Below are positions 1-39,423 of a stretch of 39,649 bases of DNA, one piece after another. Within the stretch, counting starts at the first letter, position 1. The number at the start of each line of letters is the position of its first letter. The DNA is from a virus: the UHGV virus genome UHGV-0344182; one strand, written 5' to 3'. A program made the position numbers and the translations under genes. Under the pieces are notes generated by a model that ran no database searches, was not told the DNA's origin, and was given only the letters and a program-made list of their open reading frames with translations.

Positions 1-113
1 CCGGATTGGCCGGAGCGGGGCGCGGTCAGCCGAAAGCCGCGTAAGGGAACGGGGGGCCGGAACCGTCACGAGACAATAGATAGCCCGGCCCCCACAAAAA
101 TAAGAAGACGAAA

Positions 114-335
114 ATGTATACTGTAAATCTATGTATAGCTCATGACGATTGGGGGCGGTCAGTAATGGGCCGCACATTCACTCGCCGCGGTCTGAAAAAA
201 TTTATTCACCGTCACGCTCACGTTATAGAATCCGTGCATAGCCGCATCTACACAAAAACGAAGCATGGTTTTTTACATTTCATCCCGGCAGAAGATGTTT
301 CCAGAAAGCCTATGAGCGGTTGGGTGAATCGCTGA
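114..335 (+). CDS. hypothetical small basic protein (73 aa)
   Basis: ORF in track; no clear RBS, no recognisable motif; weak. Confidence 0.25.
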   Translation: MYTVNLCIAHDDWGRSVMGRTFTRRGLKKFIHRHAHVIESVHSRIYTKTKHGFLHFIPAEDVSRKPMSGWVNR

Positions 336-571
336 AAAATTTCCCGGCCCCCGGGACCACGGCAGGGTCAGACGCTGCCCTTCGCCGCGAGGCGTCAGGG
401 GCGGCCATAGAGGATACAGTCTCTCTCTCAGGCCACTACCTCTCTCTACATGGCCGCCCCTTCACCACATTTCCCCAAATTCCCTGCCCGGCACAGACAG
501 GGCCATGCGGTTCCTCCCGCACACTGGGCTGAGGGGTCGGGTGTGTCAGCCCGGCCCCAAAAGGAGAAAAA

Positions 572-949
572 ATGATCGTCAATTTCACGCCACATGACGT
601 GGCCATATACAACGTCTCAGACTGTATCCTGAATTGCGGAAGGCTCTATCTCCACGAGAAGGCGGATATGGAGTACCCCGAGCCTTTGCGTGTGTACGCT
701 GCCGCCAAGGAACCGGCCCGCATGCACTTAGTGCAGAGAGACCCGGGCATGGCAGACGGGATTATGGTTTATTGCTGGGCGCCCTACGGGATCACCGGCC
801 TCCCCGAACCGAAGCCGGGCACTTACTACATAGTGTCCAAAATGCTCGCTCAGGCATACCCCAAGCGGGAAGATTTCATCTTCCCTGGAACGTTGGTATA
901 TGACGCCGAAGACAATGTCGTAGGTTGTATCGACTTCTCAAGAGTATAG
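572..949 (+). CDS. hypothetical protein (125 aa)
   Basis: ATG preceded by AAAAGGAGAAAAA RBS; first gene of + strand early operon. Confidence 0.6.
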   Translation: MIVNFTPHDVAIYNVSDCILNCGRLYLHEKADMEYPEPLRVYAAAKEPARMHLVQRDPGMADGIMVYCWAPYGITGLPEPKPGTYYIVSKMLAQAYPKREDFIFPGTLVYDAEDNVVGCIDFSRV

Positions 950-1091
950 AGGGCCGTGTATGGGGGAGACGTTTTGGGAACATGTCTTGGGAGTGCGCAC
1001 GTTTGTGGAGAGCACGGAAATCCCGGGGAGACGTGAGAAATCTTCACAATCTCGCCGATTCGTTCACAAAAGGGAAAATAAAGGAGTAAAA

Positions 1092-1505
1092 ATGTCCACC
1101 ACAATAGAAAAACTTCTCAGGAAAGGCATTACGCTGAAGTGGGAGATAGAGGCCCGGCAGAAGGAACTCCGTGAAATAAACAAACGGATTGCCGAGGAGG
1201 CCGAGTTCAAGCCCGGTTCTTCCACCGGCCACATCGCGGCCGGCGGTATCATGGCGAAGGTCACGAAGCGCCAGAATGTAAAGTGGGATCAGGACACGCT
1301 TGCCGTAGCGCATAAACAGATGGGAACCGAGCTTTTTGCAAAGGCTTTCACCTATAAGTTCGAGCCCATCAACGCACGCCAGCTCAAGAACTGGCTTGCT
1401 TCCGGTGACGTCCCCGACGAGGCGAAGCATCTTGTTCTGGAGGCGCGTACCGTGACGGAAGGCGCTCCTTCCGTTGTGTATGAGGAGGCAAACGATGCTG
1501 ACTAG
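1092..1505 (+). CDS. Gp157-like phage protein (coiled-coil N-terminus), partner of Sak4/DUF669 recombination module
   Basis: ATG 1092 with AAGGAG RBS 6 nt upstream; about 137 aa, coiled-coil N-term; position immediately upstream of Sak4-like ATPase and DUF669-like gene matches the known Gp157-Sak4-DUF669 arrangement. Confidence 0.5.
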   Translation: MSTTIEKLLRKGITLKWEIEARQKELREINKRIAEEAEFKPGSSTGHIAAGGIMAKVTKRQNVKWDQDTLAVAHKQMGTELFAKAFTYKFEPINARQLKNWLASGDVPDEAKHLVLEARTVTEGAPSVVYEEANDAD

Positions 1506-2241
1506 GATTACTCCGCAGTCCGCGGACCGGATTTGTGCCCTTATCCTTGGGGCATCCGGTATTGGCAAGACGTCCCAGCTCAGGTGCCTGCTTGGGCAGC
1601 GCTTCAACCCCGCTTCCGGGAAGTGGGAGAAAGACGCGGCAGCCACACCGGAAAAGGTTCTTGTTCTCTCCGCCGAAAGCGGCCTCCTCTGTGTGCGTGA
1701 CTTTGTGGCGTCCGGCGCCGTTGAAGGCTTCGAGATTCGCAGCTTGGAAGAGTTCAAGGAGGCCTTGTTGTATTGCCGTTCCCCTGAATTCGCAGAGGGG
1801 AAGTATAAGTGGGTGTTTATTGACAGCCTCACCGAGATTGCCGCCCGCTGCGTAGAGAGCCTTCAGCGGAAGTACCCTAAGAGGGACGACACATTTAAGT
1901 TGTGGGGTGAATACAGTCAGACAATGACAGACCTTGTGAAGGCCTTCCGTGACATGCCCATGTGCTCAGTCGTTTTTACCTGCCTGACAACTCAGGAACA
2001 GGACGAGTTCAAGCGGCGTTACTACGCCCCCGATATTGACGGCAAGGCCGTTAAGTCCCGCCTTCCCTCTTTTTTTGATGAGGTCCTCTACATGGACAGA
2101 ACTACGGGAGAGAACGGCGCCTCGTATGTCGTCTTCCAGACGACCGAGCCCGCCGGCCTTGCCAAGGACCGTTCCGGCAAACTGGCTCCCGTCGAAGAAC
2201 CCAACATCCTCAAAATCAAAAACAAAATCATCAACAAGTAA
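1495..2241 (+). CDS. Sak4-like AAA_24 family ATPase (RecA-fold single-strand annealing/recombination protein)
   Basis: Walker A ILGASGIGKTS, Walker B-like VFIDSL; about 248 aa; GAGGAGG RBS 6 nt before ATG 1495; overlaps upstream gene stop. Confidence 0.75.
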   Translation: MLTRITPQSADRICALILGASGIGKTSQLRCLLGQRFNPASGKWEKDAAATPEKVLVLSAESGLLCVRDFVASGAVEGFEIRSLEEFKEALLYCRSPEFAEGKYKWVFIDSLTEIAARCVESLQRKYPKRDDTFKLWGEYSQTMTDLVKAFRDMPMCSVVFTCLTTQEQDEFKRRYYAPDIDGKAVKSRLPSFFDEVLYMDRTTGENGASYVVFQTTEPAGLAKDRSGKLAPVEEPNILKIKNKIINK

Positions 2242-2252
2242 GGAGATTACTC

Positions 2253-2717
2253 ATGGATATGAACTTTGACCTCTCTAACGTCCGCACTGTTGGCACTGGC
2301 ACCATCCTTCCCCCCGGCGATTACGAGATTGTGATTAAGAACGCTGAACCCAAGCAGACGAAGGACGGCGAAACCTACGTCAATTTGTGGTACTCCGTTG
2401 TTGGCCCCACACATGCGGGAGCAATTGTTTTTGAGGCGCTCCACCTCTGGAGCGGCAACACTACCCGCACGGAGATTTCCCTGCAGCACCTGAAGAGTAT
2501 TCGTGAGGCGTGCGGGCTCAATCCCAATGTTGGCGGCACCACGGACGAGCTTATCAACAAGCGTCTCCGTATCAGGGTGGGCATCCGTGAGTATAACGGC
2601 GAGCAGTATCAGAGCTTCAAGCGCTATGCCCCGTGCGTTGCCGCCGCGGCTGCGGCAGCCAGTGCTGCCAGCGTTCCCCCGCAGGGCGGCGCAGCGCCGG
2701 CCGGGATGCCGTGGTAA
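2253..2717 (+). CDS. DUF669-like phage ssDNA-binding protein
   Basis: N-term MDMNFDLSNV..GDYEIVIKNAE typical of DUF669; TAAGGAG RBS; follows Sak4-like gene; Ala-rich C-terminal tail. Confidence 0.65.
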   Translation: MDMNFDLSNVRTVGTGTILPPGDYEIVIKNAEPKQTKDGETYVNLWYSVVGPTHAGAIVFEALHLWSGNTTRTEISLQHLKSIREACGLNPNVGGTTDELINKRLRIRVGIREYNGEQYQSFKRYAPCVAAAAAAASAASVPPQGGAAPAGMPW

Positions 2718-4345
2718 CGTTAAGGCCATACCAAGAAGCGGCCCTGCAGGCGGTGTTGCGCGATATGCGAACGCATAAAAACGTCCTCCTGCAGGCCGCC
2801 ACGGGCGCGGGGAAAACGATCATGTTCTCAGCCATCACCAGACTATTCGTAGAAAAATGGGGCCTGCATGTCGCTATCCTCGCGCACCGTGAACAGCTTG
2901 TCCGTCAGGCGGCAGATAAACTCCTTAAGGTATGGCCGGAAGGCGAAGACAAGGTAGGCATAGCCTGCCACTCTGTGACGTCATTTGTAGACGTCAACCG
3001 GCAGGTGGTGATTGGCTCCCCGCAGACGCTGGCCCGCCGTCTTGGTGAGTTGCCCGAACAGCAGCTTCTCATTGTTGACGAGTGCCACCGCCTGCCGCCG
3101 GCCGGCAAAAAAAGCCAGTACGCCACACTCATTAACCGCCTGCGTGAGTACTACCCCGATATGCGTATGCTGGGAGTGACGGCCACGCCCTACCGCCTGG
3201 GACACGGGTATATCTACGGAGAGGATTGCCGCGAGCCAAAAGAAAATTGGTTCGAAACGTTGTCCTATTCAATCGGTATTGACGACCTGCAGGACGAAGG
3301 CTTTCTGGCGCCGCTTAAGGGCTACGGGTGCACGGAACCCGACCTTTCAGGTGTGAAAACGTCCAAGGGTGAGTACGATTTAGGGGAACTGTCTGATGCC
3401 ATGTCTCAGGCTGTCCACGTTGGCAGCGCCGTTGAGGCGCTGAAGAAGTACGGGAAGAGGCGCCGTCATGTGGTGGTTTTTGCCGTATCCATCCAGCATG
3501 CCGAGATACTCAGGGACGCTTTTCGGGCCGCCGGGTATCGCGCTGGGGCAGTGCATTCTCAGATGCCGCACGATGAGAGGCAGAAGATTTTGGCTGCGTT
3601 CGACAACGGCGAGCTGGACGTTATCTGCAACGTGGGCGTGCTCACGGAAGGATGGGATTGTGTCTGCGTTGATTGCATGGCCATGTGCCGGCCAACGAAA
3701 AGCACGGCCCTGTACGTCCAGATGATAGGGCGGGGGCTCAGGACGGCGCCCGGGAAGACTGACTGCCTCCTGCTGGACCTTTCAGGCAACTGGAGGGAGC
3801 ACGGCAATCCTGCTCATCCGCGCATCCGCTGGACGAAGCCGGGGGGCCGTATACAGCAGGAGAAGAAGGGGCCGGCGGAACCGGGGCTCATTCAGTGCCT
3901 GGAATGCGAGGCGCTTATTCCGCAGTCGGCTATAACATGCCCGTTTTGTGGAGCGCCGCAGAAGCGTATCTGTGACCGCGTTCCGGTCATGGAGGAGCTG
4001 AAAGACGCGGAGAACAGCGTCCAGAAGGTCAGGCTGATAGCCACGCCGGCATTCAATCCGGCGTTCACGTCAAGAAGCGGCAATCACATGCTCAGAGTGG
4101 ATATGTGCGGCCAGCTGGAGGACGGGCGTCCCGTGTCCTTCTCGGAGTTCCTCGACCTTGAAGGCGAGGCGTCAGCTTACGGGCAGAGCAAAGCCCGCCA
4201 GATATGGAACGGCATCACGCAGACCGTCCCGCCCGTCACGCTGGAAGAAGCGGCTTCGCGGCTTGACGAGCTGAAAAACAGTTTTCCCGCGGAACTGTGG
4301 GTGCGGAAGAGGGACAAGTACTATCACGTAGTGAGGTGGTCATAA
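2711..4345 (+). CDS. Superfamily 2 DEAD/DEAH-box DNA helicase with C-terminal zinc ribbon
   Basis: LRPYQ (Q motif), AATGAGKT (motif I), DECH (motif II), TATP (III), QMIGRGLR (VI); CxxC...CxxC zinc ribbon; start uncertain (GTG 2711 overlapping upstream stop, or GTG 2633). Confidence 0.8.
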   Translation: MVTLRPYQEAALQAVLRDMRTHKNVLLQAATGAGKTIMFSAITRLFVEKWGLHVAILAHREQLVRQAADKLLKVWPEGEDKVGIACHSVTSFVDVNRQVVIGSPQTLARRLGELPEQQLLIVDECHRLPPAGKKSQYATLINRLREYYPDMRMLGVTATPYRLGHGYIYGEDCREPKENWFETLSYSIGIDDLQDEGFLAPLKGYGCTEPDLSGVKTSKGEYDLGELSDAMSQAVHVGSAVEALKKYGKRRRHVVVFAVSIQHAEILRDAFRAAGYRAGAVHSQMPHDERQKILAAFDNGELDVICNVGVLTEGWDCVCVDCMAMCRPTKSTALYVQMIGRGLRTAPGKTDCLLLDLSGNWREHGNPAHPRIRWTKPGGRIQQEKKGPAEPGLIQCLECEALIPQSAITCPFCGAPQKRICDRVPVMEELKDAENSVQKVRLIATPAFNPAFTSRSGNHMLRVDMCGQLEDGRPVSFSEFLDLEGEASAYGQSKARQIWNGITQTVPPVTLEEAASRLDELKNSFPAELWVRKRDKYYHVVRWS

Positions 4346-5163
4346 TGGAAATAGAAAACCCCATGGCGACAGCCATGTACGAGGCGGCTTCACGCTATCG
4401 CAAGGAACAGCCGGATCGCTCATATCTTGGCATGAGTATCGCGGGCGACCCGTGCCGGCGTAAGATATGGTATCAGTTCCGCGGGTTCACGCCGAAGGCC
4501 ATAGACGGCCGCGCGCAGATGATTTTCAGCCTCGGGAGTGCCGTTGAGCAGGAGGTTTTACGCTGGCTCAGGGGGGCGGGCTATCACCTTCGCGACGAGC
4601 AGCAGGAGTTTACACTGCTTAAGGGTTTCGTCCGTGGGCACTGTGACGGCGTGATTGATGACGTGAAAGGCACGCGCCCGCACATTCTTGAGATAAAGAG
4701 CGCGTCCGCGACAAGATTTAAGATGTTCAAAACTTCCGGCATTGCCGCCGTGTCGCCGGTGTACGCAGCTCAGCTCCAGCTCTACATGGGGTGTTCAGGC
4801 TTTGAGCGTGGCGTATGGGTCGTCATGAACAAGGACAACTGCGAGCTCTACATAGAGCGCGCCCACTTTGACAGGAAGGCATACCTTGACCTTCAGGAGC
4901 GTTGCGCGGCGATTATCAGCAGTGACGACCAGCCGGAGAAGGCGTTCCAGGAAGGGGCCCGCGAGTGCTCCATGTGCCCCTACGAAGGGCATTGCTGGCA
5001 CGCTCCTTATGTGCAGGAGACGCCCACGTGCGGGACGTGTGCGTTCTGCCGGTTCAACGGAATGACGCCCCACTGTGACCAATATGACCACGACATCACG
5101 AAGTGGGGCATGTCATGCCCGAAATGGGTATTCCGTGACGGCGTGGACCGGGTGCCATTTTGA
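4345..5163 (+). CDS. Cas4/RecB-like PD-(D/E)xK exonuclease with Cys cluster
   Basis: ATG overlaps helicase stop (TAATG); motifs GHCDGVID, ILEIKS, QLQLY; N-term Cys plus CSMCPYEGHC C-terminal cluster as in Cas4/AddB Fe-S nucleases. Confidence 0.7.
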   Translation: MEIENPMATAMYEAASRYRKEQPDRSYLGMSIAGDPCRRKIWYQFRGFTPKAIDGRAQMIFSLGSAVEQEVLRWLRGAGYHLRDEQQEFTLLKGFVRGHCDGVIDDVKGTRPHILEIKSASATRFKMFKTSGIAAVSPVYAAQLQLYMGCSGFERGVWVVMNKDNCELYIERAHFDRKAYLDLQERCAAIISSDDQPEKAFQEGARECSMCPYEGHCWHAPYVQETPTCGTCAFCRFNGMTPHCDQYDHDITKWGMSCPKWVFRDGVDRVPF

Positions 5164-5254
5164 AGGAAGATTGGTTTGCTGAAGAAGACGCTGGGAGCCA
5201 GCGTCATAAACATACACCGCGATTGGCGGCTTACGCCGCTGAAAAGGAGAAGAA

Positions 5255-5843
5255 AATGAAAGTAGACGTTCTAAAAGTTGACGGAATTGAAGAAGCGCTC
5301 TTGGGTATGGGGTTATCATATGGGCTGACTTCGAGCAAAAACATAAAATGCCTGAAAGACCCGAAGTTGGCAGCCCGCCTAACCCAAATTTGTGCAAAAT
5401 GCGCCAGCCGCGGGAACGGAGAAGACAAGTTCCTGAGAATGATCCAGATTTGGGCGGACGTTACGGCACCGCGGTTTTGGTGGGCAGAGTTCGACACGTA
5501 CAAGGTGGGGACTGTCGCCCTCTCGGAGAGCACGATGCACACGTTGGGGAAGCGGCCCCTTGCGCAGGAAGATTTTGAGGGGGGACTGCCTATTGAGTCT
5601 ATCGATTGGCTCAATACGTATGTATGCGCCGATTGTTCCGTTGAGACGAAAAAACGGTTTCTCCCGGAAGGGTTCCTCCAGCGCCGGATTGTGAATTTCA
5701 GTTATGCCGTATTCGCGAACATGATCCGCCAGCGCCGTAATCACAGGCTCCCGCAGTGGCATTACTTCCTGAACAACGTCTATTACGCCCTGCCTATGCA
5801 GGAATTTCTGCCGCCGCTCACTGTAGAGAAGGGGAAGGAGTAA
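5255..5843 (+). CDS. ThyX-fold (FAD-dependent thymidylate synthase-like) protein lacking RHR motif
   Basis: AAAAGGAG RBS before ATG 5255; N-term MKVDVLKVDG and segments FLRMIQIW..APRFWW and ANMIRQRRNHR..QWHYF align by eye with the ThyX core, but RHR-X7-S is replaced by FDTYKVGTVALSES. Confidence 0.45.
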
Positions 5844-5846
5844 GCT

Positions 5847-6140
5847 ATGACTTTTAATGAATGCCTGCTTTTTTTGAACAACTACCATAAAGAACTTCCT
5901 ACAAAGATGTCATCCCTTGACATAATCGATGTCATGATAGGTACGGCATATCGCCAGCTGCGGGGCAGGGGGATGACCCGCGAAAGAATTATGCAGCTGA
6001 TGCTTTGGGGGCTGTTTTATTTTGTCCAGAAAGAAAACATTCTCACGGATAAAGATGAACAGGTAGTTATCGAAGCCATGCAGGCCGCGGAAGCCAACGC
6101 GTATTTTGCTTCAATCCATCGCGAAGAGGAAGAAGAATGA
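5847..6140 (+). CDS. small phage protein, paralog of 38894..39190
   Basis: 97 aa; shares LW.LFYFVQ.E..LTDKDE.VV.EA..AA.ANA.F with the product of 38894..39190. Confidence 0.55.
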   Translation: MTFNECLLFLNNYHKELPTKMSSLDIIDVMIGTAYRQLRGRGMTRERIMQLMLWGLFYFVQKENILTDKDEQVVIEAMQAAEANAYFASIHREEEEE

Positions 6141-6292
6141 GGACAAGAGAACAAATTAAGGCGTCGCGTATCCGATATAACGTCAAGAACAAAGAAGTCA
6201 TGAAGTATGCCCGTATATATCAGATCAGCGTGCCCGAGGCGCGAAAAAAATTAGCGGAGGAACAAAATGCAGTATCCAGAAAAACCTTTTGA
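6137..6292 (+). CDS. possible small basic protein (51 aa)
   Basis: ATG overlapping the upstream stop (ATGA); below the 60-aa track cutoff; overlaps the next gene by 26 nt; speculative. Confidence 0.25.
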   Translation: MRTREQIKASRIRYNVKNKEVMKYARIYQISVPEARKKLAEEQNAVSRKTF

Positions 6293-6773
6293 GCATAGGG
6301 ATGCCGTTTTAGGCATATCCTTCCCTTTGGTGGCTATAGACTACTATCCTGAAGCGTGCGGCGAGCCTTCAGCCGCTTTAAAAAAGCTGCGCCCCCTGCT
6401 GAAAAAACTTCACGGCACCCTGCAGGTAGATAAGCTGAGTGCCGGAGAACACCGCGCTATCAAGGACGCCTGCGACGGGGCCAGAGACACCGGTTCAGGA
6501 TACGATACAGAAGCCTGCAGGGAAGAGCAGATGCGCGGGTGGCGCGTTATGTGGTTCGTGGCTGAATACGCTTTCGGTGACGCCTACGTGCTCGCAGAGA
6601 AGTGGCGCAACAAGGCACTTCCACTCTGGAAGGAAGCCAAGGCCATTATCGACCGGGTGACACGCACCATGTATCAGTACCACCCCGCAGAAGAGGAAGA
6701 AGCTTGCAGGATATGGTGCTGTCACGCCAGCCCATACAAAAATCCCAAGCTGGAGAGCATATGGCGGAACTGA
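6267..6773 (+). CDS. hypothetical protein (168 aa)
   Basis: GCGGAGGAA RBS before ATG; last gene of + strand operon before the terminators. Confidence 0.6.
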   Translation: MQYPEKPFEHRDAVLGISFPLVAIDYYPEACGEPSAALKKLRPLLKKLHGTLQVDKLSAGEHRAIKDACDGARDTGSGYDTEACREEQMRGWRVMWFVAEYAFGDAYVLAEKWRNKALPLWKEAKAIIDRVTRTMYQYHPAEEEEACRIWCCHASPYKNPKLESIWRN

Positions 6774-6882
6774 GCGAGATTACGGACCTGCGTCAGGGAA
6801 TACGTATTTAACGTAATTTCGATAACTTATAACACACGCTGCACCAAACTTATGGTGCAGGCCGGAAAAGGCCGCCGCACAG

Positions 6883-6920
6883 CCCGGCAGAGGTCAAGCG
6901 CTTCTGCCGGGAAATTTTTA
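6883..6920 (+). terminator. candidate rho-independent terminator of + strand early operon
   Basis: 8-bp stem CCCGGCAG/CTGCCGGG with 13-nt loop followed by AAATTTTTAT. Confidence 0.4.
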
Positions 6921-6942
6921 TAAAAATTGGGTAAACGCTCCT

Positions 6943-6975
6943 AAAAACAAAAAAGGGCTGATACAATATCAGCCC
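6943..6975 (-). terminator. rho-independent terminator of the - strand low-GC cassette
   Basis: 9-bp stem GGGCTGATA/TATCAGCCC, 3-nt loop, followed on - strand by TTTTTGTTTTT; 25 nt downstream of the 7000..7191 stop. Confidence 0.65.
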
Positions 6976-6999
6976 TGACACTACTACCTAATGTGGTAA

Positions 7000-7191
7000 C
7001 TATTTGTTGTTCATTGCCATATTGGGGTGCATATGACACAGCAGACGCCAGCAGTCAAGTAAGTCGTCAAGCTCCTGACTATACAAGCGTTCGGAGGAAG
7101 CATTATTCAGAATATAATCTATAGTCTTAAGTGCCTGCTTCTCTGTTTCTTCCGAAGCGTTCATGCGCCATTCCTTGTACTCCATAATCAC
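7000..7191 (-). CDS. hypothetical protein (63 aa), low-GC cassette gene 4
   Basis: ORF; overlaps upstream gene by 4 nt; low GC relative to flanks. Confidence 0.45.
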   Translation of the reverse strand: MIMEYKEWRMNASEETEKQALKTIDYILNNASSERLYSQELDDLLDCWRLLCHMHPNMAMNNK

Positions 7192-7523
7192 TCCTGCACA
7201 AACTGCGATGCAATAGCCTGTAGTTTGTCCACATCGCTTTCATCAAAGATGATACCTAATACAGGTACAGTACCAGCCTTATGTACGGCGTCTTTAATAC
7301 GGGCGAAAATAACATCCGGTTTAACAGAACCATCAGCATTCAGACTGTCAAGAAAGCCAAGGATAGGAGTAAACTGTTCAAGCAATGCTTTAGCTTTTGT
7401 CTGTATAACCGGCATAGCCAGGTACAATCCTACTTTCTGCAAGCCGCTGCTTTGAGGTATCAGCTCTGACTCTATGTAGGTACAAACAGCCAGGCTAAGA
7501 TTTTCCGCCGTTATTCTGGACAT
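7188..7523 (-). CDS. hypothetical protein (111 aa), low-GC cassette gene 3
   Basis: ORF separated by 2 nt from upstream gene; GC roughly 45% by eye. Confidence 0.55.
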   Translation of the reverse strand: MSRITAENLSLAVCTYIESELIPQSSGLQKVGLYLAMPVIQTKAKALLEQFTPILGFLDSLNADGSVKPDVIFARIKDAVHKAGTVPVLGIIFDESDVDKLQAIASQFVQE

Positions 7524-7525
7524 GG

Positions 7526-8101
7526 CTAGCCTTCATTTGTAGCGGCTGCAGTGGGCGCCGTCCAGGAATTATACCTGCTCATAACTTCCGGACAGATGGC
7601 ACTTTTGGGAATTACTGTCTGGGTAATAGCCCCAAGAGTAGTATTGATGGCCGCAACAGCATTATTAAGCTGAGAGATGCCACAGCCGCAAGTCTGTGCC
7701 ACACCATCTATTTTGGCCCCAAGCTCAGCCCTGACAAGTTTTTCCCGCAAAGCGGCTGCCTCAGCATCACAAGCCTGCTTAGCTTCCAGGACTGCCACGC
7801 GCTCACGATTGGAAGCGGCTTCCTGCGCAATAGGAGTAACATAGGCAAAGACCTCGTCCCGCAGGTTTTTGTTCTCAGCCCTTGTGGCCTGATACAAAAC
7901 TGCATCCTGATTGTCAGAATACTTCTGCGCAGTCAGTTCCGCTATCTTTGCATCCTTTTCAGCAATGACACTGGCGCAGTTATTACCACCTAAAATGCCG
8001 CCAAGGCCCCCGCCGTTACCATTAAGAAGAGACAAAGCCGTACCAGCAATGCCAAGTCCAAGGCCTGTTCCAGCTATGCCTTTGCTTGCGAATTCAGCCA
8101 T
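7526..8101 (-). CDS. hypothetical membrane protein: N-terminal Gly-zipper TM helix, Gly/Asn-rich linker, long coiled coil (191 aa), cassette gene 2
   Basis: GIAGTGLGLGIAGTALSLL hydrophobic Gly-zipper, then NGNGGGLGGILGGNN, then heptad-like Ala/Glu/Lys/Arg-rich region; AGGAGG RBS 7 nt upstream, lying inside a hairpin. Confidence 0.55.
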   Translation of the reverse strand: MAEFASKGIAGTGLGLGIAGTALSLLNGNGGGLGGILGGNNCASVIAEKDAKIAELTAQKYSDNQDAVLYQATRAENKNLRDEVFAYVTPIAQEAASNRERVAVLEAKQACDAEAAALREKLVRAELGAKIDGVAQTCGCGISQLNNAVAAINTTLGAITQTVIPKSAICPEVMSRYNSWTAPTAAATNEG

Positions 8102-8108
8102 AAATAAT

Positions 8109-8146
8109 CCTCCTGTATAGTAGTAGTGGCCTCACTATACAGGAGG
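8109..8146 (-). promoter_or_regulatory. hairpin sequestering the RBS of gene 7526..8101 (13-bp perfect inverted repeat)
   Basis: CCTCCTGTATAGT ... ACTATACAGGAGG with 12-nt loop; the AGGAGG SD forms the 3' arm of the stem on the mRNA. Confidence 0.45.
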
Positions 8147-8182
8147 GAAGATCAGCAGGAAATATATCTGTGGACACACGTG

Positions 8183-8440
8183 CTACTTTTTGCCCAGCTT
8201 GGCCAGACGCCCCGCAGGAGTAACAAGAATAAACCGTGAACCACAGCGTTTGCAACGCCAGCTACTCTTCCTCGCATATTCCAATGGATGCTGTCCAGTG
8301 GGTTCATCAGGCATTGTACGCTGGCAATGCAGAGGCCCGTCAGAACAAACAGGGCACGTATAAGAAGGAGTCGCCGCAACAGCACTGGGCAAATGTGGGA
8401 AAGCCAAAACCATAACAAGAAGGAGAAGACTTCTCAGCAT
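8183..8440 (-). CDS. small secreted or membrane-anchored Cys-rich protein (85 aa), cassette gene 1
   Basis: AAGGAG RBS 7 nt before ATG; N-term MLRSLLLLVMVLAFPHLPSAVAA looks like a signal peptide; mature part has CPVC....HC....CKRC (zinc-ribbon-like). Confidence 0.55.
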   Translation of the reverse strand: MLRSLLLLVMVLAFPHLPSAVAATPSYTCPVCSDGPLHCQRTMPDEPTGQHPLEYARKSSWRCKRCGSRFILVTPAGRLAKLGKK

Positions 8441-8570
8441 AATATTACTCCTTTATTTAATTTCGCCGTATCCATGCGAAGTTTTATCGTGTGTGACATT
8501 ATCGGACCCCCTTCCAAGCATAAACCGACACATAAGGCGGCATGTTGTTGTGTGCGGTACCTCCGCCGGC

Positions 8571-8599
8571 GTTATAAATGCTACTGTGAGTATTGTTAA
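8571..8599 (-). promoter_or_regulatory. candidate sigma70-type promoter for the low-GC cassette
   Basis: On - strand TTAACA, 17-nt spacer, TATAAC; about 130 nt upstream of the 8440 start codon. Confidence 0.35.
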
Positions 8600-8643
8600 A
8601 ATGTATTCTATCGTATCCTCCTTTATAGGCCTTTCCTTTGGGG

Positions 8644-8751
8644 TTATTCGTCCGCGTCGAGAAGGGTCTGCACAGCTGCTCTCCAGCGGGTGGGAACCTC
8701 GTCAATGGTCATGCGTCCGGTCTTAATCATTCTGTAGTAAATTTTAGCCAT
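8644..8751 (-). CDS. XkdX-like small phage protein (35 aa)
   Basis: MAKIYYRMIKTGRMTIDEVPTRW resembles the Phage_XkdX family; GGAGG RBS; overlaps upstream stop (ATGGCTAA). Confidence 0.55.
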   Translation of the reverse strand: MAKIYYRMIKTGRMTIDEVPTRWRAAVQTLLDADE

Positions 8752-9262
8752 TTTTTGCCTCCAGTTTCGCAATACGCTGTTCAAGTTCAGCCGCGTAGGC
8801 GGCGAGGTCGAGGGCGGCCGCGTCCAATTCTTCTTTATCGGAGGAGGATGCCACGCCCAGCTCCGCAACAGCCGCCTCAAGGTCAGGCACTCTGGCCGCT
8901 TCGGTCTCGACCTTTTTGCGCCGTTCTTCTTCCGCGGCCTTTTCTTCGTCGGTCTGCTCCGGGCGCGTCAGCGATGCACCGTCAGGAAGCGGCCCCAGCT
9001 CCTTCATCTCTATAGACGCGCTGTTGTACGTAGCCCCTTTCGGCCAATACTGAATACCCCGGTGATCTTCTGTCTCAATCCACCCCGACCCGTTCCAGAT
9101 AGCAGTGTATCCGGTGCGTTTGGCCGGAGGCGCCGTGAATGTGGCGTTAGCCGGGAGAAGGTACACCTCACGCCCTTCCATCCGTGACCTTACAGGGTCT
9201 GGGAAACATGGTACCGATTCGAGGAACTCATGTGTAGTTATTGAATACATGTATGCTTGCAT
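8744..9262 (-). CDS. tail fiber assembly/chaperone-like protein with coiled-coil C-terminus
   Basis: IWNGSGWIETEDHRG resembles the Tfa (Caudo_TAP) motif; AGGAGG RBS; immediately downstream of a tail fiber gene. Confidence 0.55.
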   Translation of the reverse strand: MQAYMYSITTHEFLESVPCFPDPVRSRMEGREVYLLPANATFTAPPAKRTGYTAIWNGSGWIETEDHRGIQYWPKGATYNSASIEMKELGPLPDGASLTRPEQTDEEKAAEEERRKKVETEAARVPDLEAAVAELGVASSSDKEELDAAALDLAAYAAELEQRIAKLEAKNG

Positions 9263-9271
9263 ATTAGCCTC

Positions 9272-9922
9272 CTATTCGTATCGAATGCAGGGAAGAAGGC
9301 AGAGAGCGGGCGGTTGAACAGTGGAAGACTTGCCGTAGATAGAGTTGGAACGGGAGGCGTCGAAAAGAAGATCTCGCTTCGCAGGGCCTTCATTTATGGC
9401 GCTTGTTTTCCAGTCGTGATTGTAAACACCCCAAAAAAAACAACCGAGGTCTGAGTAGTTCGATTGCTCTTGTCCGTCTGTTTGAATGAAAGTCGCCCTG
9501 CCCGTGATATTCGGCACCCCTGCTTTCAATTCCGTGCCGATCTGAGTGCTGGAGCCCCACGGGACCTTGCCCATCAGGTTGGGCAACCTAAAACCGCTTG
9601 GGGGGACGTCTTCTTTCGGTGCAAAGGTAAACCCAATCACAGCAAACAACTCAATGTAATCGGATATGGCAACCGCAGACCCGTCGCATACCAGCCACCC
9701 ATCCGGAGGTGTGGACATAGCGAACCAGCGGATCTCACCAATGACAGCCCCACGCCGCAATGTGTTATCTGTGCTGTCGAGGGCGTCACACTTGTTTTTG
9801 AGCGCGGCCATCACCGCCCGTAAGGCATCATTCATGTTTTTAGCCGGGCAGTGCTCAGCAATATTAATCCCGTCAATGGCCGTGTTTTCGTCGGCTGTTG
9901 CCGACCAATCCTGAACAGGCAT
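9272..9922 (-). CDS. tail fiber protein with phage tail-collar domain
   Basis: N-term DWSATADENTAIDGINIAE; GWLVCDGSAVAISDYIELFAVIGFTF...FRLPNLMGKV collar-domain signature; AAGGAGGG RBS. Confidence 0.8.
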   Translation of the reverse strand: MPVQDWSATADENTAIDGINIAEHCPAKNMNDALRAVMAALKNKCDALDSTDNTLRRGAVIGEIRWFAMSTPPDGWLVCDGSAVAISDYIELFAVIGFTFAPKEDVPPSGFRLPNLMGKVPWGSSTQIGTELKAGVPNITGRATFIQTDGQEQSNYSDLGCFFWGVYNHDWKTSAINEGPAKRDLLFDASRSNSIYGKSSTVQPPALCLLPCIRYE

Positions 9923-9925
9923 GCT

Positions 9926-10432
9926 TTAGCCCTCCTTCGCAACGGCGGGCTTATCCGGCCACGGGACAGTCTCATCCGTCCACGGTGCGCCGGGCTGGGA
10001 TGGCAGATCCCGAAGCGCCTGCCGATAGCTCTTCACTGCACCCAAGCTCTCAGAGGTAAGCGCCGGATAATCAGGCGCAAAAACATAATCCGTCTCTGAA
10101 AGGCGCTTGTTGCGTTCCTTCCGTAATCTGTGCCAGAGCGCTTCGGGAGAATTATACATCGCCCAAGCCGCCTCTTTAGCAATCTCGGCTTCTTTATCGG
10201 CGGCGGCTTTAGCCTGCTGCCACGCCAGATAGTACGGGTACACGAGGCGGCCGTACTCCTCCTGTGCCAGTTTTACCGGCTCTGTGCCGTCGTTCCTGTC
10301 GGCTTCGCCCTTTTCGCCGTCCCAGACGATGGAATAAAAGGGTTCCGCTTCAGCCACGCTAGGCATAGCAACGGTGCAGCCTACGCCATCCACCACAACA
10401 GTTTTATCGGGAATAACGATCGTGATTTTCAC
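9926..10432 (-). CDS. tail fiber assembly protein (Tfa-like), GTG start
   Basis: MKITIVIPDKTVVVDG...YSIVWDGEKG typical Tfa N-terminus; GGAGG 6 nt upstream of GTG. Confidence 0.7.
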   Translation of the reverse strand: MKITIVIPDKTVVVDGVGCTVAMPSVAEAEPFYSIVWDGEKGEADRNDGTEPVKLAQEEYGRLVYPYYLAWQQAKAAADKEAEIAKEAAWAMYNSPEALWHRLRKERNKRLSETDYVFAPDYPALTSESLGAVKSYRQALRDLPSQPGAPWTDETVPWPDKPAVAKEG

Positions 10433-10901
10433 TTTTTCCTCCAGTGACTACAAAATGGACTGAATCAAACCCCTCATCCTCTGCCGGGTACTCCTGCCGC
10501 GTGCAGGCCTGATAGAAATTATCCCTGCTGATAGGCCACTCCCTGGCGATGTTGCGCTCGGCGGCCTCATACATGGGGCAGAGCAGGTAGACGCAGTCGA
10601 TATGGTCAATGCCCCGCTTTTTCAGGCCCGCAACTATAGCCTTGCGGCGTTCTTTATCGACGGCGCCGTCGTCAAGATAAAAATCAAAGTCTGTTGTGCT
10701 TTCCCAGGCGCTGGCTACAGCGTTAAGATACTCATCGAGCCCCCGTGGGTCTGTGATGAACATCCATCCGGCCTTCTCTACGTCAGTTTCTCCATAGTGA
10801 CGGGATAGCCAAGAATCGAACGAAAAGACCGCCGCATCCCGGCCTCTGCAGTACGTTGACTTGCCCGATGCTGGAATTCCTGCAACAAACACAAATTTCA
10901 T
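10404..10901 (-). CDS. P-loop kinase of the polynucleotide kinase (AAA_33/Pnk kinase-domain) type, inserted between a tail fiber gene and its chaperone
   Basis: MKFVFVAGIPASGKST Walker A at N-terminus; downstream ERNIAREWPISRD resembles the T4 Pnk KRNSKRG segment; ATG 1 nt after fiber stop (TAGAATG); GGTGG RBS. Confidence 0.6.
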   Translation of the reverse strand: MKFVFVAGIPASGKSTYCRGRDAAVFSFDSWLSRHYGETDVEKAGWMFITDPRGLDEYLNAVASAWESTTDFDFYLDDGAVDKERRKAIVAGLKKRGIDHIDCVYLLCPMYEAAERNIAREWPISRDNFYQACTRQEYPAEDEGFDSVHFVVTGGKSENHDRYSR

Positions 10902-10902
10902 T

Positions 10903-11571
10903 CTACACCACCTTCTGAATGAAGCAGAGCGCGTAAAAAGGAGGCCTGTTATCGAAGCTGTTGCCTGCATACGACCCCCCGGCAGGGTGAGAGTGCCCCC
11001 ACGACGCCCCCGAATTGGAACTGTACACGTTGTAGTTCCCCCAGTCGTGGCTGTTGATTGTAGTCAGCCATCCACTGCCGTTGTACCATGACCCGCCATG
11101 GGCCCCCTGTTGGCTGACCCTGTGGTTATGTGCCGGCATCTCATTCAATGACAGGACATGAGAACCTACTGATACAGATATTGATCCAGAAGGCGTAACG
11201 CTTGCGTTGCCGCCGGTGTCGTCAACCTTATAATCGTCTCCTGCTCCAACAACAAACCGATTGCGCAGGTCTTTTGTACCCGCCTGCCCGTTGCAGAGGG
11301 CCCACCCCGTGGGAATATCCGCTGTTGTGCCGTTCCAGAGCGCGATCGTGCCCTTGGGGACCTTGTGCTTGTCGAGGTCACCGGAGACGTCGGCTATCTG
11401 TTTAAGCGCTGATTCGATTTTTGCCGCCACATCGGCGTGCTCCTGTGCGAGATCCGCCATGAGCTGACGGATGGCATTGTTCACGTTAGACGGCAAACAC
11501 CCCTCAGCTACGTTAATGCCGCTAATGGAGGTGTTGTTGTCTGCTGTTTTACTGTAGTCTGCTATGGGCAT
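10903..11571 (-). CDS. tail fiber protein with tail-collar domain and His-rich C-terminus
   Basis: N-term ADYSKTADNNTSISGINVAE paralogous to the 9272..9922 product; GWALCNGQAGTKDLRNRFVVGAG collar motif; HNH..H..HSH cluster. Confidence 0.8.
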   Translation of the reverse strand: MPIADYSKTADNNTSISGINVAEGCLPSNVNNAIRQLMADLAQEHADVAAKIESALKQIADVSGDLDKHKVPKGTIALWNGTTADIPTGWALCNGQAGTKDLRNRFVVGAGDDYKVDDTGGNASVTPSGSISVSVGSHVLSLNEMPAHNHRVSQQGAHGGSWYNGSGWLTTINSHDWGNYNVYSSNSGASWGHSHPAGGSYAGNSFDNRPPFYALCFIQKVV

Positions 11572-17500: not shown

Positions 17501-17988
17501 TTCTTCAGGTTGTAAGCCGTGCGCTCAAGCCATCCGGCGTCAGGGCCGGGCATCGTGTTGCCGTTACGGTCATAATACGTAGGGTTTGTGCCGGGCGGCA
17601 CCGCTTCCCCCGTATAAGGCATGTACAGCGTTCGGTTGAGGTGCAGGCCGTACTCGGGGCGAAGGCCGGATCTCTCCATGGCGGCCTTATCTTCCGGGGT
17701 CATCTGCGCGGCGCCTTCAGCGGCCTGCTGCGCCGTACCCTGTCGCTGATACTTTGGATCAGGGATGTTCACGCTCATATATGCCGGCGTCCCCTGACCC
17801 ATGAAATAGAGAAGGCCGCCGAGACCCGCAAGGTCAACGGGGGGGTCATTTGGGACGGCTACGGCCGGAGCCTGTACGCGGGGAATAGCGCCGCCAGCGC
17901 CTGCGGCCGCGGTTGTTTTGCCGGCTGGCGTCTTGTAGAGGCCGCCATACTGTGGAGTGTTGTTTCTGGAAAAAACGGAACCTGCCAT
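17491..17988 (-). CDS. hypothetical virion-module protein (165 aa)
   Basis: ORF in structural operon. Confidence 0.5.
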   Translation of the reverse strand: MAGSVFSRNNTPQYGGLYKTPAGKTTAAAGAGGAIPRVQAPAVAVPNDPPVDLAGLGGLLYFMGQGTPAYMSVNIPDPKYQRQGTAQQAAEGAAQMTPEDKAAMERSGLRPEYGLHLNRTLYMPYTGEAVPPGTNPTYYDRNGNTMPGPDAGWLERTAYNLKKWF

Positions 17989-18404
17989 TAGAGCAAACCT
18001 CCAAGAAGACCATTAAGAGCACCCATGCCGGCGCCTACAGCGGCGCCCGTGGGGCCAAAGAGAGAACCAACAGCGCCGCCCATACCGGCATTGCCAAGCA
18101 CCTGGCTTTGGCCGGAAGTTAGCCTGCCGTTCCCATTCATCATGCCAAGAAGGCCGCCTATACTGCCCACCGTGCCCATAACGCCGTTCAGGCCGCTGCC
18201 CTGCTGCGTGGCCATGCCGGGCGCCTGTATCTGCTGGAAGCCGGCGCCGCCGCCCTGCTGAGTAACAGGGGGCGTAACCGTTCCTGCGGGGCGGGAATAC
18301 TGTCCCGTTGTGGCCGCGCCTATCTGCCCCTGCTGGAGGCCGTTCTGCCTGAGAAAGGGATTGTTGTACTGCGTCATCATTTTCTGTTCTCCTCTAGCTT
18401 CCAA
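17988..18404 (-). CDS. Gln/Gly-rich small virion protein (about 130 aa) with C-terminal Gly-zipper
   Basis: ORF; C-terminal GLLGMMNGNG...GAGMGALNGLLGGLL Gly-zipper hydrophobic tail. Confidence 0.5.
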   Translation of the reverse strand: MEARGEQKMMTQYNNPFLRQNGLQQGQIGAATTGQYSRPAGTVTPPVTQQGGGAGFQQIQAPGMATQQGSGLNGVMGTVGSIGGLLGMMNGNGRLTSGQSQVLGNAGMGGAVGSLFGPTGAAVGAGMGALNGLLGGLL

Positions 18405-27731: not shown

Positions 27732-28096
27732 TTCTTCGGTCTCCCAGCCCGCTTGTGCGGGCGTACAAAAGTGACCCTGATGGCCTGCTCAGTCTTAATC
27801 GGCTCTCCGTCGGGTCCAGAGCACTCTATGCGGGTAGTCTCCCTGTACCCCAAACGCGTCTTCAAGAGGAAGATCATCATCCGCACATCGCCATCCATGG
27901 CCATCTGATAAGCAGTCTTTGCGAGGCCTTCCGCAGCCTCAGCCATGCCGGCATCCAGCTCTGGCGTGTAGTACTTCACCAGCGTTCCTGTACTTACCCC
28001 TATCTGCACGGCTATTTCTCGCTGCCTCACGCCATACTTAGCGAGGGCGCGGACTATCGCCCGCTTCTCGTCCGTAGGTACATGCTCATCTCTCAT
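27713..28096 (-). CDS. terS: terminase small subunit with N-terminal HTH
   Basis: IVRALAKYGVRQREIAVQIGVSTGTL HTH; 127 aa; immediately upstream of TerL. Confidence 0.7.
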   Translation of the reverse strand: MRDEHVPTDEKRAIVRALAKYGVRQREIAVQIGVSTGTLVKYYTPELDAGMAEAAEGLAKTAYQMAMDGDVRMMIFLLKTRLGYRETTRIECSGPDGEPIKTEQAIRVTFVRPHKRAGRPKKCTEKE

Positions 28097-28386
28097 CTGT
28101 CATACATCCTCTTTATAAAACGGAAGCGCAGAGCGTCCAGCAGCATGCCGCCGGAGTTACCAGCCACGCCGCAAAGTCCCACAAGGGCTATATCTGGCAC
28201 CTTGTCCGCGAGGAGGGAGAAAGCCAGCACGCCGCAGAAGGCTGACACGACTATCTGCGTAAGCAGGTCGAGCCAGCCTTGGACGCCTTTTCGCATGACG
28301 CGGACGACGCCGCCCACGAGGCCGAAAGCGGCACCCAGCGCGCACAGTTTCAGGAGTTCCCACCATCCGCCGAGGTCATGCATCAC
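28093..28386 (-). CDS. small membrane protein, holin-like (97 aa)
   Basis: 2-3 predicted TM segments, charged C-terminus; overlaps neighbours (ATGA); sits in the lysis cassette. Confidence 0.55.
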   Translation of the reverse strand: MMHDLGGWWELLKLCALGAAFGLVGGVVRVMRKGVQGWLDLLTQIVVSAFCGVLAFSLLADKVPDIALVGLCGVAGNSGGMLLDALRFRFIKRMYDR

Positions 28387-28925
28387 CTGCCACCTCCCTG
28401 CACTTTCTTCAAGAAAGCGTCTTTTGAAGCGCTGCCGAGACTGGAGCCGAGGTAGTACTGGACGACAGCGCCGAAGGCGGAAGCGAGCGTACCTAGGAGC
28501 ATCAGCCCCGCATCCCCGAGCTCAGCCTTCCCGCCGTGGAGCACGGCCCACAGCATCACAAAAAACCCCACGGTGACTATGCACGACACTACGGACGTAG
28601 CCCAGCTGGCACCGTGGCCGGTCTTGGCCAGCTCGACCTCACGATCACGTGCGCTCATCCTATCTGTGAGCTCTGCCTGCACCTGGTCTCTCTGCCACTG
28701 GAGGAGCTGCGCCTGCTGCTGGATCTCCAGATCCTTTAGCTTGAGCAGCAGGTCGGGGGACTGCGCCAAGGTGCGCTGCACGTCCGCAGGGTCAGGCTCA
28801 CACCCGAGCGCGGACGCTATGAGTGAGCCGGCCGCCCCGGCGATAGCGCCCACAGGTCCGCCGAGGACGCTGCCCAGCACGGGCGCCGCCTTAGCGACGG
28901 CGCGGCCGACGTCTGCCCACTCCAT
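28383..28925 (-). CDS. holin of the GTA-type 3TM family
   Basis: N-term MEWADVGRAVAKAAPVLGSVLGGPVGAIAGAAGSLIASALG plus DP..LLKLKDLE and two further TM helices match the GTA_holin_3TM pattern. Confidence 0.6.
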   Translation of the reverse strand: MEWADVGRAVAKAAPVLGSVLGGPVGAIAGAAGSLIASALGCEPDPADVQRTLAQSPDLLLKLKDLEIQQQAQLLQWQRDQVQAELTDRMSARDREVELAKTGHGASWATSVVSCIVTVGFFVMLWAVLHGGKAELGDAGLMLLGTLASAFGAVVQYYLGSSLGSASKDAFLKKVQGGGR

Positions 28926-29557
28926 CAGAGAAGCTCCTGCAGGAGGCGGCCTTCCGCGGCGCGCCGTCCCAGGTACTCACCGCCCCACCCGTCACGGTCG
29001 AGGAGTGCGGCAGACGCCTTCGCCCAGTCTCCGCGGCGCAGGGCCGCCAGAGTGACGGGCGCACGGCGCTCAGCTCCACGCACCCCGCACTGATAGACGA
29101 GCGAGAAGGCCACGGCCTGCGCCTGCCACGGGAGAGAGGCGAAGTCGCGGGAAGGCGCGCGCCTGTCCCACCACGGCACCACTACATCATCCATGTAGCC
29201 GCGGTGCTCGGCATCCGTGAGCTCACGCGCCTGCGCCACCGTGAGGGTGAGCGAGCGGTTGCGCAGCTCGCGGAGAGCGGCACCACACTGTAGACCTATA
29301 TACATATGGATAGCATCCATCGTACCATCGGACACTCCCCAGCGTCTCAGCTGGGGGGCAGTCTGCTGGCCGAGGTCTACGCCCACGCCCACAGTCACGC
29401 CAGAGACACCCATAGCCTCATAGTCCGTCACGGGCGCGCGGCCCGTGTAATTCTCCGTCCCGCCGGACAGGCGCCGGCACGGTATATACCCGCGACACGT
29501 CAGCGGCCCTTCTACCGTCTCCAGCCACTTGAACACCTTTTTATACTGAATCGACAT
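28925..29557 (-). CDS. endolysin, GH24 pesticin/T4-lysozyme-like
   Basis: E...D...T catalytic spacing (VEG, TDYEA, VTVGVGVDLG) and the LPWQAQAVAFSLVYQCG / RRGDWAKA segments resemble T4 lysozyme-type muramidases. Confidence 0.65.
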   Translation of the reverse strand: MSIQYKKVFKWLETVEGPLTCRGYIPCRRLSGGTENYTGRAPVTDYEAMGVSGVTVGVGVDLGQQTAPQLRRWGVSDGTMDAIHMYIGLQCGAALRELRNRSLTLTVAQARELTDAEHRGYMDDVVVPWWDRRAPSRDFASLPWQAQAVAFSLVYQCGVRGAERRAPVTLAALRRGDWAKASAALLDRDGWGGEYLGRRAAEGRLLQELL

Positions 29558-38572: not shown

Positions 38573-38893
38573 GGGGGGGAACTTTAAACAAAAGACAAAA
38601 AAATATCAAGAGCGGGGGCTTAGCTTTTTCTGCTCAAAAATTTTGGGCAAATAGCAAAAAAACTTCTTGCATTTTTTAACCGTTTAGATATTCTGTCTTT
38701 GCCAGCGGGGAGAAGAGCCGCAGAAAGGAACCTTCCGAGGGTCCGAGTAAGCAGAGGCACTGCCCTCCCCAAAAGGCCCCGTCTGTCCGGCAGGGACGGC
38801 CTGAATCATAGGGTAAGTCGGCATAGCCGCACACTGCCTTATTAGTAAGGTACGAAGAACGAGGGACACGAAGACGGGATAAAGGAGGCGAAA

Positions 38894-39190: not shown

Positions 39191-39192
39191 GA

Positions 39193-39423
39193 ATGTATAC
39201 AGCCACTGACCGTTTTCATGACACTGCCGCCCTTCTCTCTTCCATCGAGAGCCGGACGGTACGCGAGGCCCGCAGGGCCTTTGCCTGGCAGATGGCGCAG
39301 CAGAGAAAGAGGACTCGCAGGGAGCGCATCATATCCGTATGTGCAACAACCGTAGCCGCGGCCGTATGGGCCGCGTGTATTCTGCTTACGAGCGGCATGC
39401 TGTTCATCGTGGGCACAGAATAG
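39193..39423 (+). CDS. small protein with C-terminal TM helix (76 aa)
   Basis: ORF 2 nt after upstream stop; IISVCATTVAAAVWAACILLTSGMLFIVG hydrophobic segment. Confidence 0.4.
   Translation: MYTATDRFHDTAALLSSIESRTVREARRAFAWQMAQQRKRTRRERIISVCATTVAAAVWAACILLTSGMLFIVGTE

Follow-up and report, generated by a model that had tools for sequence, protein, structure and literature searches.

The 39,649-nucleotide virus genome UHGV-0344182 (hereafter the window, meaning the whole stretch of DNA analyzed) carries a horizontally acquired, self-contained accessory cassette, a 'moron' with a candidate promoter, directly after its last tail-fiber-region gene. The core of this cassette is F1-F2-F3, a mobile, dispensable and strongly conserved three-gene module, preceded here by a fourth gene encoding an 85-residue cysteine-rich protein. 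The element is of a kind already known (a moron with mom-like gating); what is new is the cargo, an uncharacterized family present in at least two phyla. The F1 module is tentatively read as serving a late and tightly gated accessory function at the membrane, in which F2 and F3 would be soluble partners, a reading that is favored below and is best described as possible rather than probable.

The limits of the insertion emerge from comparison with sibling phages, in which the 172-residue tail-fiber-assembly gene is 85-90% identical to that of the window and the module is missing throughout (0/7 recovered siblings). In siblings L102-L104 and L106, the stop codon of a 39-residue gene (window position 8645) is joined to position 6882 through ∼38 nucleotides, a junction that forms a terminator-like hairpin in L102; sibling L105 is joined similarly, but to position 6879. 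The insert therefore spans 6883..8644 (1.76 kb), slightly more than the region singled out in an earlier note on this DNA, and the same junctions bear out the note's placement of the cassette in the moron slot after the tail fibers. Since module-less siblings exist, the module is dispensable and hence accessory. Identity to relatives is 95-98% inside the cassette, compared with 83-92% in the flanking tail genes. The low G+C content on which the note had based a horizontal origin holds up on calculation: at 0.475 (whole window, 0.567), 6943-8599 ranks in the lowest 0.3% of stretches of its size, and the third-position G+C (GC3) of the cassette genes is 0.40-0.56 against 0.657 ± 0.063 for the other 40 genes, about three standard deviations lower. 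The uniform base composition and codon usage named beforehand as grounds for abandoning that origin were not seen, as both deviate in the cassette. Two small early genes (5847-6292) are likewise low in G+C. In other lineages the G+C content of the module equals that of the backbone, so the low value here marks a recent acquisition in this lineage only. The label 'XkdX' previously attached to the 39-residue gene is unconfirmed, with no Pfam match and phrog_1382 (function not assigned) as its only hit. In one module-less sibling (L100, 6049-6852), the slot after this gene is filled by an N6/N4 DNA methyltransferase gene (PF01555, E = 5e-23), a cargo type found at the mom position of some Mu-like prophages.

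Phage morons of the HK97/lambda type, as described by Hendrix and colleagues, are independently acquired accessory transcription units. The cassette resembles them in being extra DNA between genes that are adjacent in siblings, in its atypical base composition, in its own terminator and candidate promoter, and in its position at the late-operon end near the prophage end. It differs from them in its cargo, a co-evolving three-gene module plus a lineage-specific fourth gene instead of a single gene, and in the translational lock on the first module gene, expression from the prophage being putative.

All four open reading frames (ORFs) of the minus-strand block proposed earlier are present and under purifying selection. 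The ratio of nonsynonymous to synonymous substitution rates (dN/dS), estimated against the 95%-identical relative L011, is 0 for F1 (19 synonymous nucleotide changes, zero amino-acid changes), 0.15 for F2, 0 for F3 and 0.20 for the 85-residue ORF, and values of 0-0.20 across the four mark them all as genuine genes. Genomic neighborhood analysis with iterated local hidden Markov models (HMMs) over 100 loci reveals F2 directly downstream of F1 in 95 of them and F3 after F2 in 70; where the F3 HMM finds no match, another small helical ORF follows F2. The 85-residue gene is confined to this phage lineage (9/100 loci, the nine closest relatives). The earlier note's view of a compositionally foreign cassette with boundaries of its own is supported, but the conserved functional unit within it comprises three genes, not four.

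The module is widespread and little tied to its surroundings. Homologs of F1 number 2,312 at 90% clustering and form 722 clusters at 50% identity. F1-F2-F3 synteny is kept in unrelated phages, also outside a tail-fiber context: carriers include BPP-1-like podophages, SU10-like phages and the Bacteroides phages DAC16-23, with Sutterella and Bacteroides as hosts, together with one Clostridia-binned contig. A blastn search of the cassette against GenBank phages gave no match, and tblastn recovered only DAC16-23, annotated as 'hypothetical' throughout, and unannotated fecal contigs. Neighbors over 32 representative contexts are heterogeneous (tail fibers, integrases, nrdD, lysis genes, regulators), with no fixed partner. 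In BPP-1-like Sutterella podophages the trio lies downstream of a holin, an M15 endolysin and Rz/Rz1; in S. wadsworthensis it lies directly upstream of a holin, a lysozyme and Rz/Rz1; elsewhere it adjoins nrdD or integrase genes. Two generalizations, that the module is a member of a lysis cassette and that it always stands next to an integrase, were rejected on this heterogeneity.

F1 has three parts: a glycine-rich hydrophobic N-terminus, a long helical stalk and, at the C-terminus, a conserved motif. The N-terminal consensus is EYASKGVAGxGLGLGIAGTALGLL..GLLGGLxGG; its best 19-residue Kyte-Doolittle mean is 1.52 (family median 1.6), near the usual transmembrane (TM) threshold, in a segment that is 32% glycine. 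Judging from these sequence features, F1 appears to be membrane-targeted. The AlphaFold2 model is one continuous helix over residues 43-162, with a low-confidence N-terminus (predicted local distance difference test score of 68), and the length of the helical part differs widely among homologs. The C-terminal motif contains an invariant Cys-Pro and is often followed by a Thr-rich tail; cysteine 170 is invariant in the family and cysteine 140 nearly so. F2 yields a confident structure model that matches no solved structure.

Family scans took in the four cassette proteins and, for F1, 44 diverse homologs as well. Pfam, PHROGs, NCBIfam and PADLOC returned nothing meaningful, no PADLOC-DB protein model matching any of the four proteins at E ≤ 0.1, which agrees with the earlier statement that no described system has this composition. 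Neither F1 nor its 44 homologs have a holin, XhlA or BhlA Pfam match. Homologs annotated as XhlA/BhlA-like, which the note had said would count against its interpretation, were not seen. The claimed 'echo' of the F1 glycine zipper in the virion protein at 17988..18404 did not survive, amounting to no more than low-complexity similarity (BLASTP E = 0.37-1.0).

Translation of F1 is predicted to be structurally blocked by default, because its ribosome-binding site is locked in a hairpin. The hairpin noted earlier at this site is indeed a perfect 12-bp stem, with the AGGAGG of F1 as its 3' arm (z = -3.2 in its 86-nucleotide context), located in the 81-nucleotide spacer between the 85-residue gene and F1. 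The Shine-Dalgarno (SD) region of F1 has an unpaired probability of 0.20, compared with a median of 0.49 for the other genes.

In related loci, this control takes a recognizable form. Com binds an RNA target CC(N)2-3GAG, and the bipartite sequence GAGNNCC(N)2-3GAGNNCC was obtained by systematic evolution of ligands by exponential enrichment (SELEX) (PMC6483171). In the BPP-1-like lineages, F1 is immediately preceded by a gene for a 60-90-residue zinc ribbon (VRCPxCGKRLFD...CxRCK). Com-like ORFs of this kind precede F1 in 30 loci; one of them reaches the gathering score of PF10122 (Zn_ribbon_Com, Mu Com), at 23.7 bits where the cutoff is 22.9, and a second scores 18.2 bits. The intergenic RNA of these lineages contains AGAGAACCUCGAGUUCC, an exact instance of the bipartite Com SELEX motif, immediately followed by a hairpin that carries the F1 AUG in its stem. 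The motif has 56 matches in 2.7 Mb of loci, counting both strands, and 31 of these are situated immediately 5' of F1. Covariation supports the start-codon hairpin, which is paired in 86% of cells, as opposed to 21-47% in slid controls, and shows three compensatory pairs. On this sequence evidence and by analogy, F1 is probably under com-mom-type translational control in 31 related loci. The Mu mom product is host-toxic and late, the com-mom arrangement restricting it to late infection, and Com-like genes also gate non-mom cargo such as adenine methylases (PMC3299994). By this analogy, the product of F1 would, as with mom, have to stay off until a late stage of infection; expression would accordingly be late and in need of tight gating, which hints at toxicity, a view to which the presence of the module in the DAC phages lends weaker support.

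Other lineages carry non-homologous hairpins that pair the F1 SD or start codon, some followed by a U-run, and the genes preceding these anti-SD hairpins are of HTH_17, sigma-70 region-4-like and Bro-N types. Start regions of F1 carry more RNA structure than the start regions of other genes (P = 0.005-0.018, from non-independent samples). In L064, L074 and L056, ∼70 nucleotides upstream of F1, a hairpin GACCUCCAAG...UUUUGGAGGUC followed by UUUUUUAUG resembles an intrinsic terminator; with the F1 SD as its 3' arm, it may act as a combined terminator and translational lock. The same three loci (∼8545-9036) hold an extra gene between F1 and F2, encoding a very Cys/Thr-rich protein of 142-162 residues, and in L018 (1142-1591) the extra gene at this place encodes a BclA_C-like, tumor necrosis factor (TNF)-like protein.

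By analogy, the window seems to follow the same gating logic with different parts: a zinc-ribbon-like gene, a spacer and an anti-SD hairpin. The likeness to Mu com-mom and its counterparts in FluMu, Pnm1 and B3 (PMC6483171, PMC3299994) extends to the position of the cassette, which follows the tail-fiber genes at the distal end of the late region, the small four-cysteine zinc-ribbon-like gene directly upstream and the burial of the cargo start region in a hairpin; 31 relatives add a genuine Com-like ORF and the exact SELEX motif beside an AUG-containing hairpin. Unlike in Mu, the cargo has no relationship to Mom or DNA methylases. In the window itself, the zinc-ribbon protein has a signal peptide, a wider cysteine spacing and no match to PF10122, the Com motif is absent from the RNA, and it is the SD, not the start codon, that the hairpin covers.

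The signal-peptide, Cys-rich protein described in the earlier note was found in the 85-residue ORF, with a Sec-type signal peptide (MLRSLLLLVMVLAFPHLPSAVA followed by A) and a CPVC..C..CKRC zinc-ribbon-like region. Against Pfam it gives weak zinc-ribbon matches only, and an exact-sequence look-up returned no record. Alignment of the relatives shows the gene to be present in them but missed by gene callers.

Evidence on transcription signals is mixed. The stem-loop/T-tract terminator reported at the distal end of the cassette is as strong as claimed (Table 1). The promoter reported at the proximal end, TTAACA-17-TATAAC, exists as a sequence at 8599..8571 but is no better than chance: two equally good sites were found, compared with 2.7 ± 1.5 expected, the -10 hexamer lacks the final T, and the consensus scan did not report the site. 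Indirect support for it comes from L011, with which homology resumes at window position 8615, 16 nucleotides upstream of the -35-like hexamer. In L013 (∼9110-9480, corresponding to window ∼8595), a ∼370-bp insertion lies exactly within this hexamer and, judged by eye, seems to encode the zinc-ribbon C-terminus of a TnpB/IS605-type protein ahead of structured-RNA-like sequence.

Table 1. Coordinates of the inserted cassette and of the features within it (window positions).
Feature	Position	Strand	Description
Whole inserted cassette (moron)	6883..8644	-	Present in close relatives, absent from sibling phages
Promoter-like TTAACA-17-TATAAC	8571..8599	-	Weak call
85-residue protein	8183..8440	-	ORF with Sec-type signal peptide and zinc-ribbon-like region; AAGGAG 8 nucleotides upstream of ATG
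Hairpin over the F1 Shine-Dalgarno	8109..8146	-	12 bp; arms CCUCCUGUAUAG/CUAUACAGGAGG, then AUUAUUUAUG
F1 (191 residues)	7526..8101	-	Glycine-zipper hydrophobic N-terminus (residues 8-40), ∼120-residue helix, C-terminal ICPEVMxRYNSWTAPT motif
F2 (111 residues)	7188..7523	-	Small soluble alpha/beta protein, directly downstream of F1
F3 (63 residues)	7000..7191	-	Small helical protein, overlaps F2 stop
Intrinsic terminator of the cassette	6944..6976	-	10-bp stem (6976..6954) and T-tract, -15.3 kcal/mol, z = -4.1
Terminator-like hairpin at the inner edge of the insert	6883..6911	+	Faces the convergent early operon; 12 pairs, 8 GC, then AAATTTTTAT

In the favored reading, the glycine zipper of F1 would insert into the cytoplasmic membrane while its helical stalk oligomerizes. 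The protein would act on the envelope late in infection, either by making membranes permeable or fusing them or by modulating lysis; F2 and F3, both soluble, would be its partners, acting as chaperones or holding it in check. The F1 N-terminus is conserved across unrelated virions and host phyla, which suggests that its target is universal, for instance the lipid bilayer. Three lines of evidence speak for a late lytic role over conversion expressed from the prophage: the Com-type gating in relatives, the terminator-like anti-SD hairpins elsewhere, and the occurrence of the module in DAC16-23, whose examined stretch showed no lysogeny genes. A bolder version, in which a fusion-protein-like F1 oligomer, its glycine zipper serving as 'fusion peptide' on a long helical stalk, is held by two small proteins, gated at the RNA level and released to remodel or breach the envelope late in infection, as one machine spanning phyla, is distinctly unlikely.

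Several findings weigh against the interpretation of F1 as a late envelope-acting protein. The hydrophobic segment is borderline for a transmembrane helix, topology signals are weak, and the helix has a periodicity of 3.8 residues, not the 3.5 canonical for a heptad coiled coil. Against PDB sequences, the F1 profile retrieves only non-significant coiled-coil and influenza HA2 matches (E = 0.085-0.9); several align the glycine-rich segment and helix to the HA2 fusion peptide and coiled coil, a non-significant resemblance that would be one of architecture, not homology. Among the F1 matches listed, none is named and none has a Pfam domain, and no annotated homolog bears on function. A holin or endolysin lies within four genes in ∼6-7 of the 32 representative contexts, which is not above chance, and the lysis genes of the window (28.1-29.6 kb) are 20 kb from the cassette. 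Gating in the window departs from the Com model in that the motif, searched as GAGNNCCNNGAGNNCC (2-nucleotide spacer), has no exact match there (three one-mismatch sites lie elsewhere and are expected by chance), and in that the upstream zinc-ribbon protein, with its signal peptide, is apparently exported. The scan found no terminator between the late operon and the cassette, so independent transcription of the cassette is putative. Finally, the sequestin gene near some copies of the module and the DNA methylase in the same slot fit an anti-defense island equally well.

The classic moron anatomy of the cassette invites an explanation by superinfection exclusion or lysogenic conversion, in which the promoter of the cassette is active in the lysogen and an inner-membrane F1, its stalk in the periplasm, blocks the DNA entry of other phages or alters the envelope, with the secreted 85-residue protein as co-factor. 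The position at the prophage end by an att site or integrase, the promoter-like hexamers inside the insert, its own terminator, the signal peptide of the upstream protein, and the conserved cysteines 170 and 140, which fit a periplasmic location, all agree with this. Yet the promoter is no better than chance, the F1 SD is sequestered, relatives use Com-type late translational activation, the proteins have no PADLOC match, and the module also occurs in DAC16-23 and beside nrdD in phages with no integrase seen in the flanks scanned, so that this explanation is considered unlikely. An anti-defense role, in which F1-F3 neutralizes a membrane-associated abortive-infection or other defense effector of the host from within an anti-defense island, is more doubtful still. 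It gains from the sequestin/crAss001_48 gene (PF21825) beside the module in two unrelated backbones (L001, 4716-4964; L011, 9192-9410), sequestin being a signal-sequestering anti-defense protein, a phage protein that binds up immune signaling nucleotides (bioRxiv 10.1101/2025.07.12.664507). The methylase in the slot of L100 and the sporadic, dispensable and mobile nature of the module fit it too, as does the anti-restriction function of known Com-gated cargo (mom, adenine methylases). Against it, sequestin is adjacent in only 2/32 representative contexts, the proteins show no similarity to known anti-defense proteins, and F1 is unusually conserved across host phyla for a protein engaged in an arms race.

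If F1 were instead an accessory virion fiber, a trimeric coiled coil with a small C-terminal head for which F2 and F3 serve as assembly chaperones, its place after tail-fiber and fiber-chaperone genes here and in ∼10/32 contexts would be explained, as would a stalk whose length varies among homologs in the manner of fibers. The BclA_C-like gene between F1 and F2 in L018 tends the same way, and a KYSD motif together with the 3.8-residue periodicity presumably recalls the stalks of trimeric autotransporter adhesins, in line with a weak PDB match to 2yo3 (E = 0.072). The same conserved N-terminus, however, occurs in unrelated virion architectures, which makes a common virion docking site unlikely; BPP-1-like phages have the module under Com control and on the other strand from their structural genes, and a glycine-rich hydrophobic N-terminus is atypical for fiber anchors. 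A fiber is accordingly given little credence. Least credible is an ordinary lysis component of this phage (an i-spanin, u-spanin or holin), which can be regarded as highly improbable. F1 does have an i-spanin-like layout (N-terminal anchor, helical periplasmic domain, near-C-terminal cysteine), a crude lipobox scan of the window gave no o-spanin candidate, and in L017 the trio directly precedes a holin, a lysozyme and Rz/Rz1. But L017 and L005 have canonical Rz/Rz1 pairs in addition to the module, module-less siblings exist, no lipoprotein partner or lipobox ORF lies in or beside F1, separate holin-like genes stand beside the window lysozyme, and no holin-family Pfam match was obtained. Moreover, loci L081 and L094 carry the module together with GH25 and (by eye) NlpC/P60-like endolysins, enzymes that are presumably associated with monoderm hosts.

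Several groups of known membrane-associated proteins share features with F1. With spanins (lambda Rz/Rz1) and class I fusion proteins (influenza HA2), F1 shares a hydrophobic Gly-rich N-terminus, a long helical stalk and a cysteine in its C-terminal region. Unlike them, it has no lipoprotein partner and no C-terminal anchor, its matches are non-significant (E ≥ 0.085), genuine Rz/Rz1 pairs occur alongside the module, and nothing in those systems corresponds to F2 and F3. Holins of the BhlA/UviB, XhlA and GTA_holin_3TM types are likewise small membrane-targeted phage proteins with a helical extension; F1 differs in lacking Pfam or profile similarity to them, in its single borderline hydrophobic segment and conserved C-terminal motif, and in lying outside the lysis cassette. 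The 180-residue lysis protein of the window also begins with a glycine zipper followed by a coiled coil, like F1; an hhalign comparison of the two gave a probability of 2%. SlyB/PCP and Gly-zipper_Omp are families of glycine-zipper outer-membrane lipoproteins. F1 resembles them in its glycine-zipper segment, a possible membrane-embedded helical hairpin, and is set apart by its lack of a lipobox or Pfam match, its long stalk and its C-terminal Cys-Pro motif. A literature search found no papers on glycine-zipper coiled-coil lysis proteins.

The host phage of the cassette is SU10-like, with an SU10 portal, major capsid protein and adaptor and a Terminase_3 gene. Related loci were located in Sutterella genome records, and phages L008-L013 have SU10/Kuravirus-type capsid genes in clearly integrated Sutterella prophages, the same capsid type as window 12-24 kb. 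This capsid type is described from virulent coliphages. Window positions 1-954 and 38776-39649 are contiguous in relative L020 (15070-16573), so the window is a circularly permuted or circular complete genome. Its early region (∼954-6797) is swapped for unrelated genes in L020 and L011, a mosaic pattern. Homology among relatives stops near window ∼6797 (∼11305 in L008, L009 and L010), at ...AAATACG(C/T)(G/A)TTCC, and three differing host contexts lie beyond (ABC transporter genes, a nitroreductase and a Dot/Icm type IVB cluster); since the flanks all differ and hold host-type genes, this point is taken as the prophage end, and the prophage would integrate at several sites. The integrases of three relatives (L011, L005, L017), used as queries, have no detectable homolog in the window. 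The lysis cluster (28093-29557, minus strand) lies just upstream of the terminase and comprises a Pesticin-like lysozyme (210 residues), the 180-residue protein, with two TM segments beside its glycine zipper and coiled coil, and a 97-residue holin-like protein. No spanin pair was found beside it, and the lipobox scan of the whole window yielded no convincing ORF. Amid the tail-fiber and chaperone genes, 10404-10970 (minus strand) encodes a 188-residue P-loop protein (GIPASGKST), an unusual site for an NTPase or kinase; its homolog in relatives has a weak AAA_33 kinase-like match.

The module is abundant in human-gut phages, occurring in at least two bacterial phyla and a Clostridia-binned contig and in several virion types, and represents a sizeable portion of phage 'dark matter' with a defined gene set and boundaries and no database family. 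The siblings with and without the 1.76-kb insert are natural knock-outs that make it directly testable. Recruitment of the Mu Com switch, exact SELEX motif included, to a cargo other than DNA modification would widen the known use of this switch. If the bolder version of the envelope reading, rated distinctly unlikely above, is true, F1-F2-F3 would found a class of lysis or exclusion effectors of its own, separate from holins, endolysins, spanins and disruptins.

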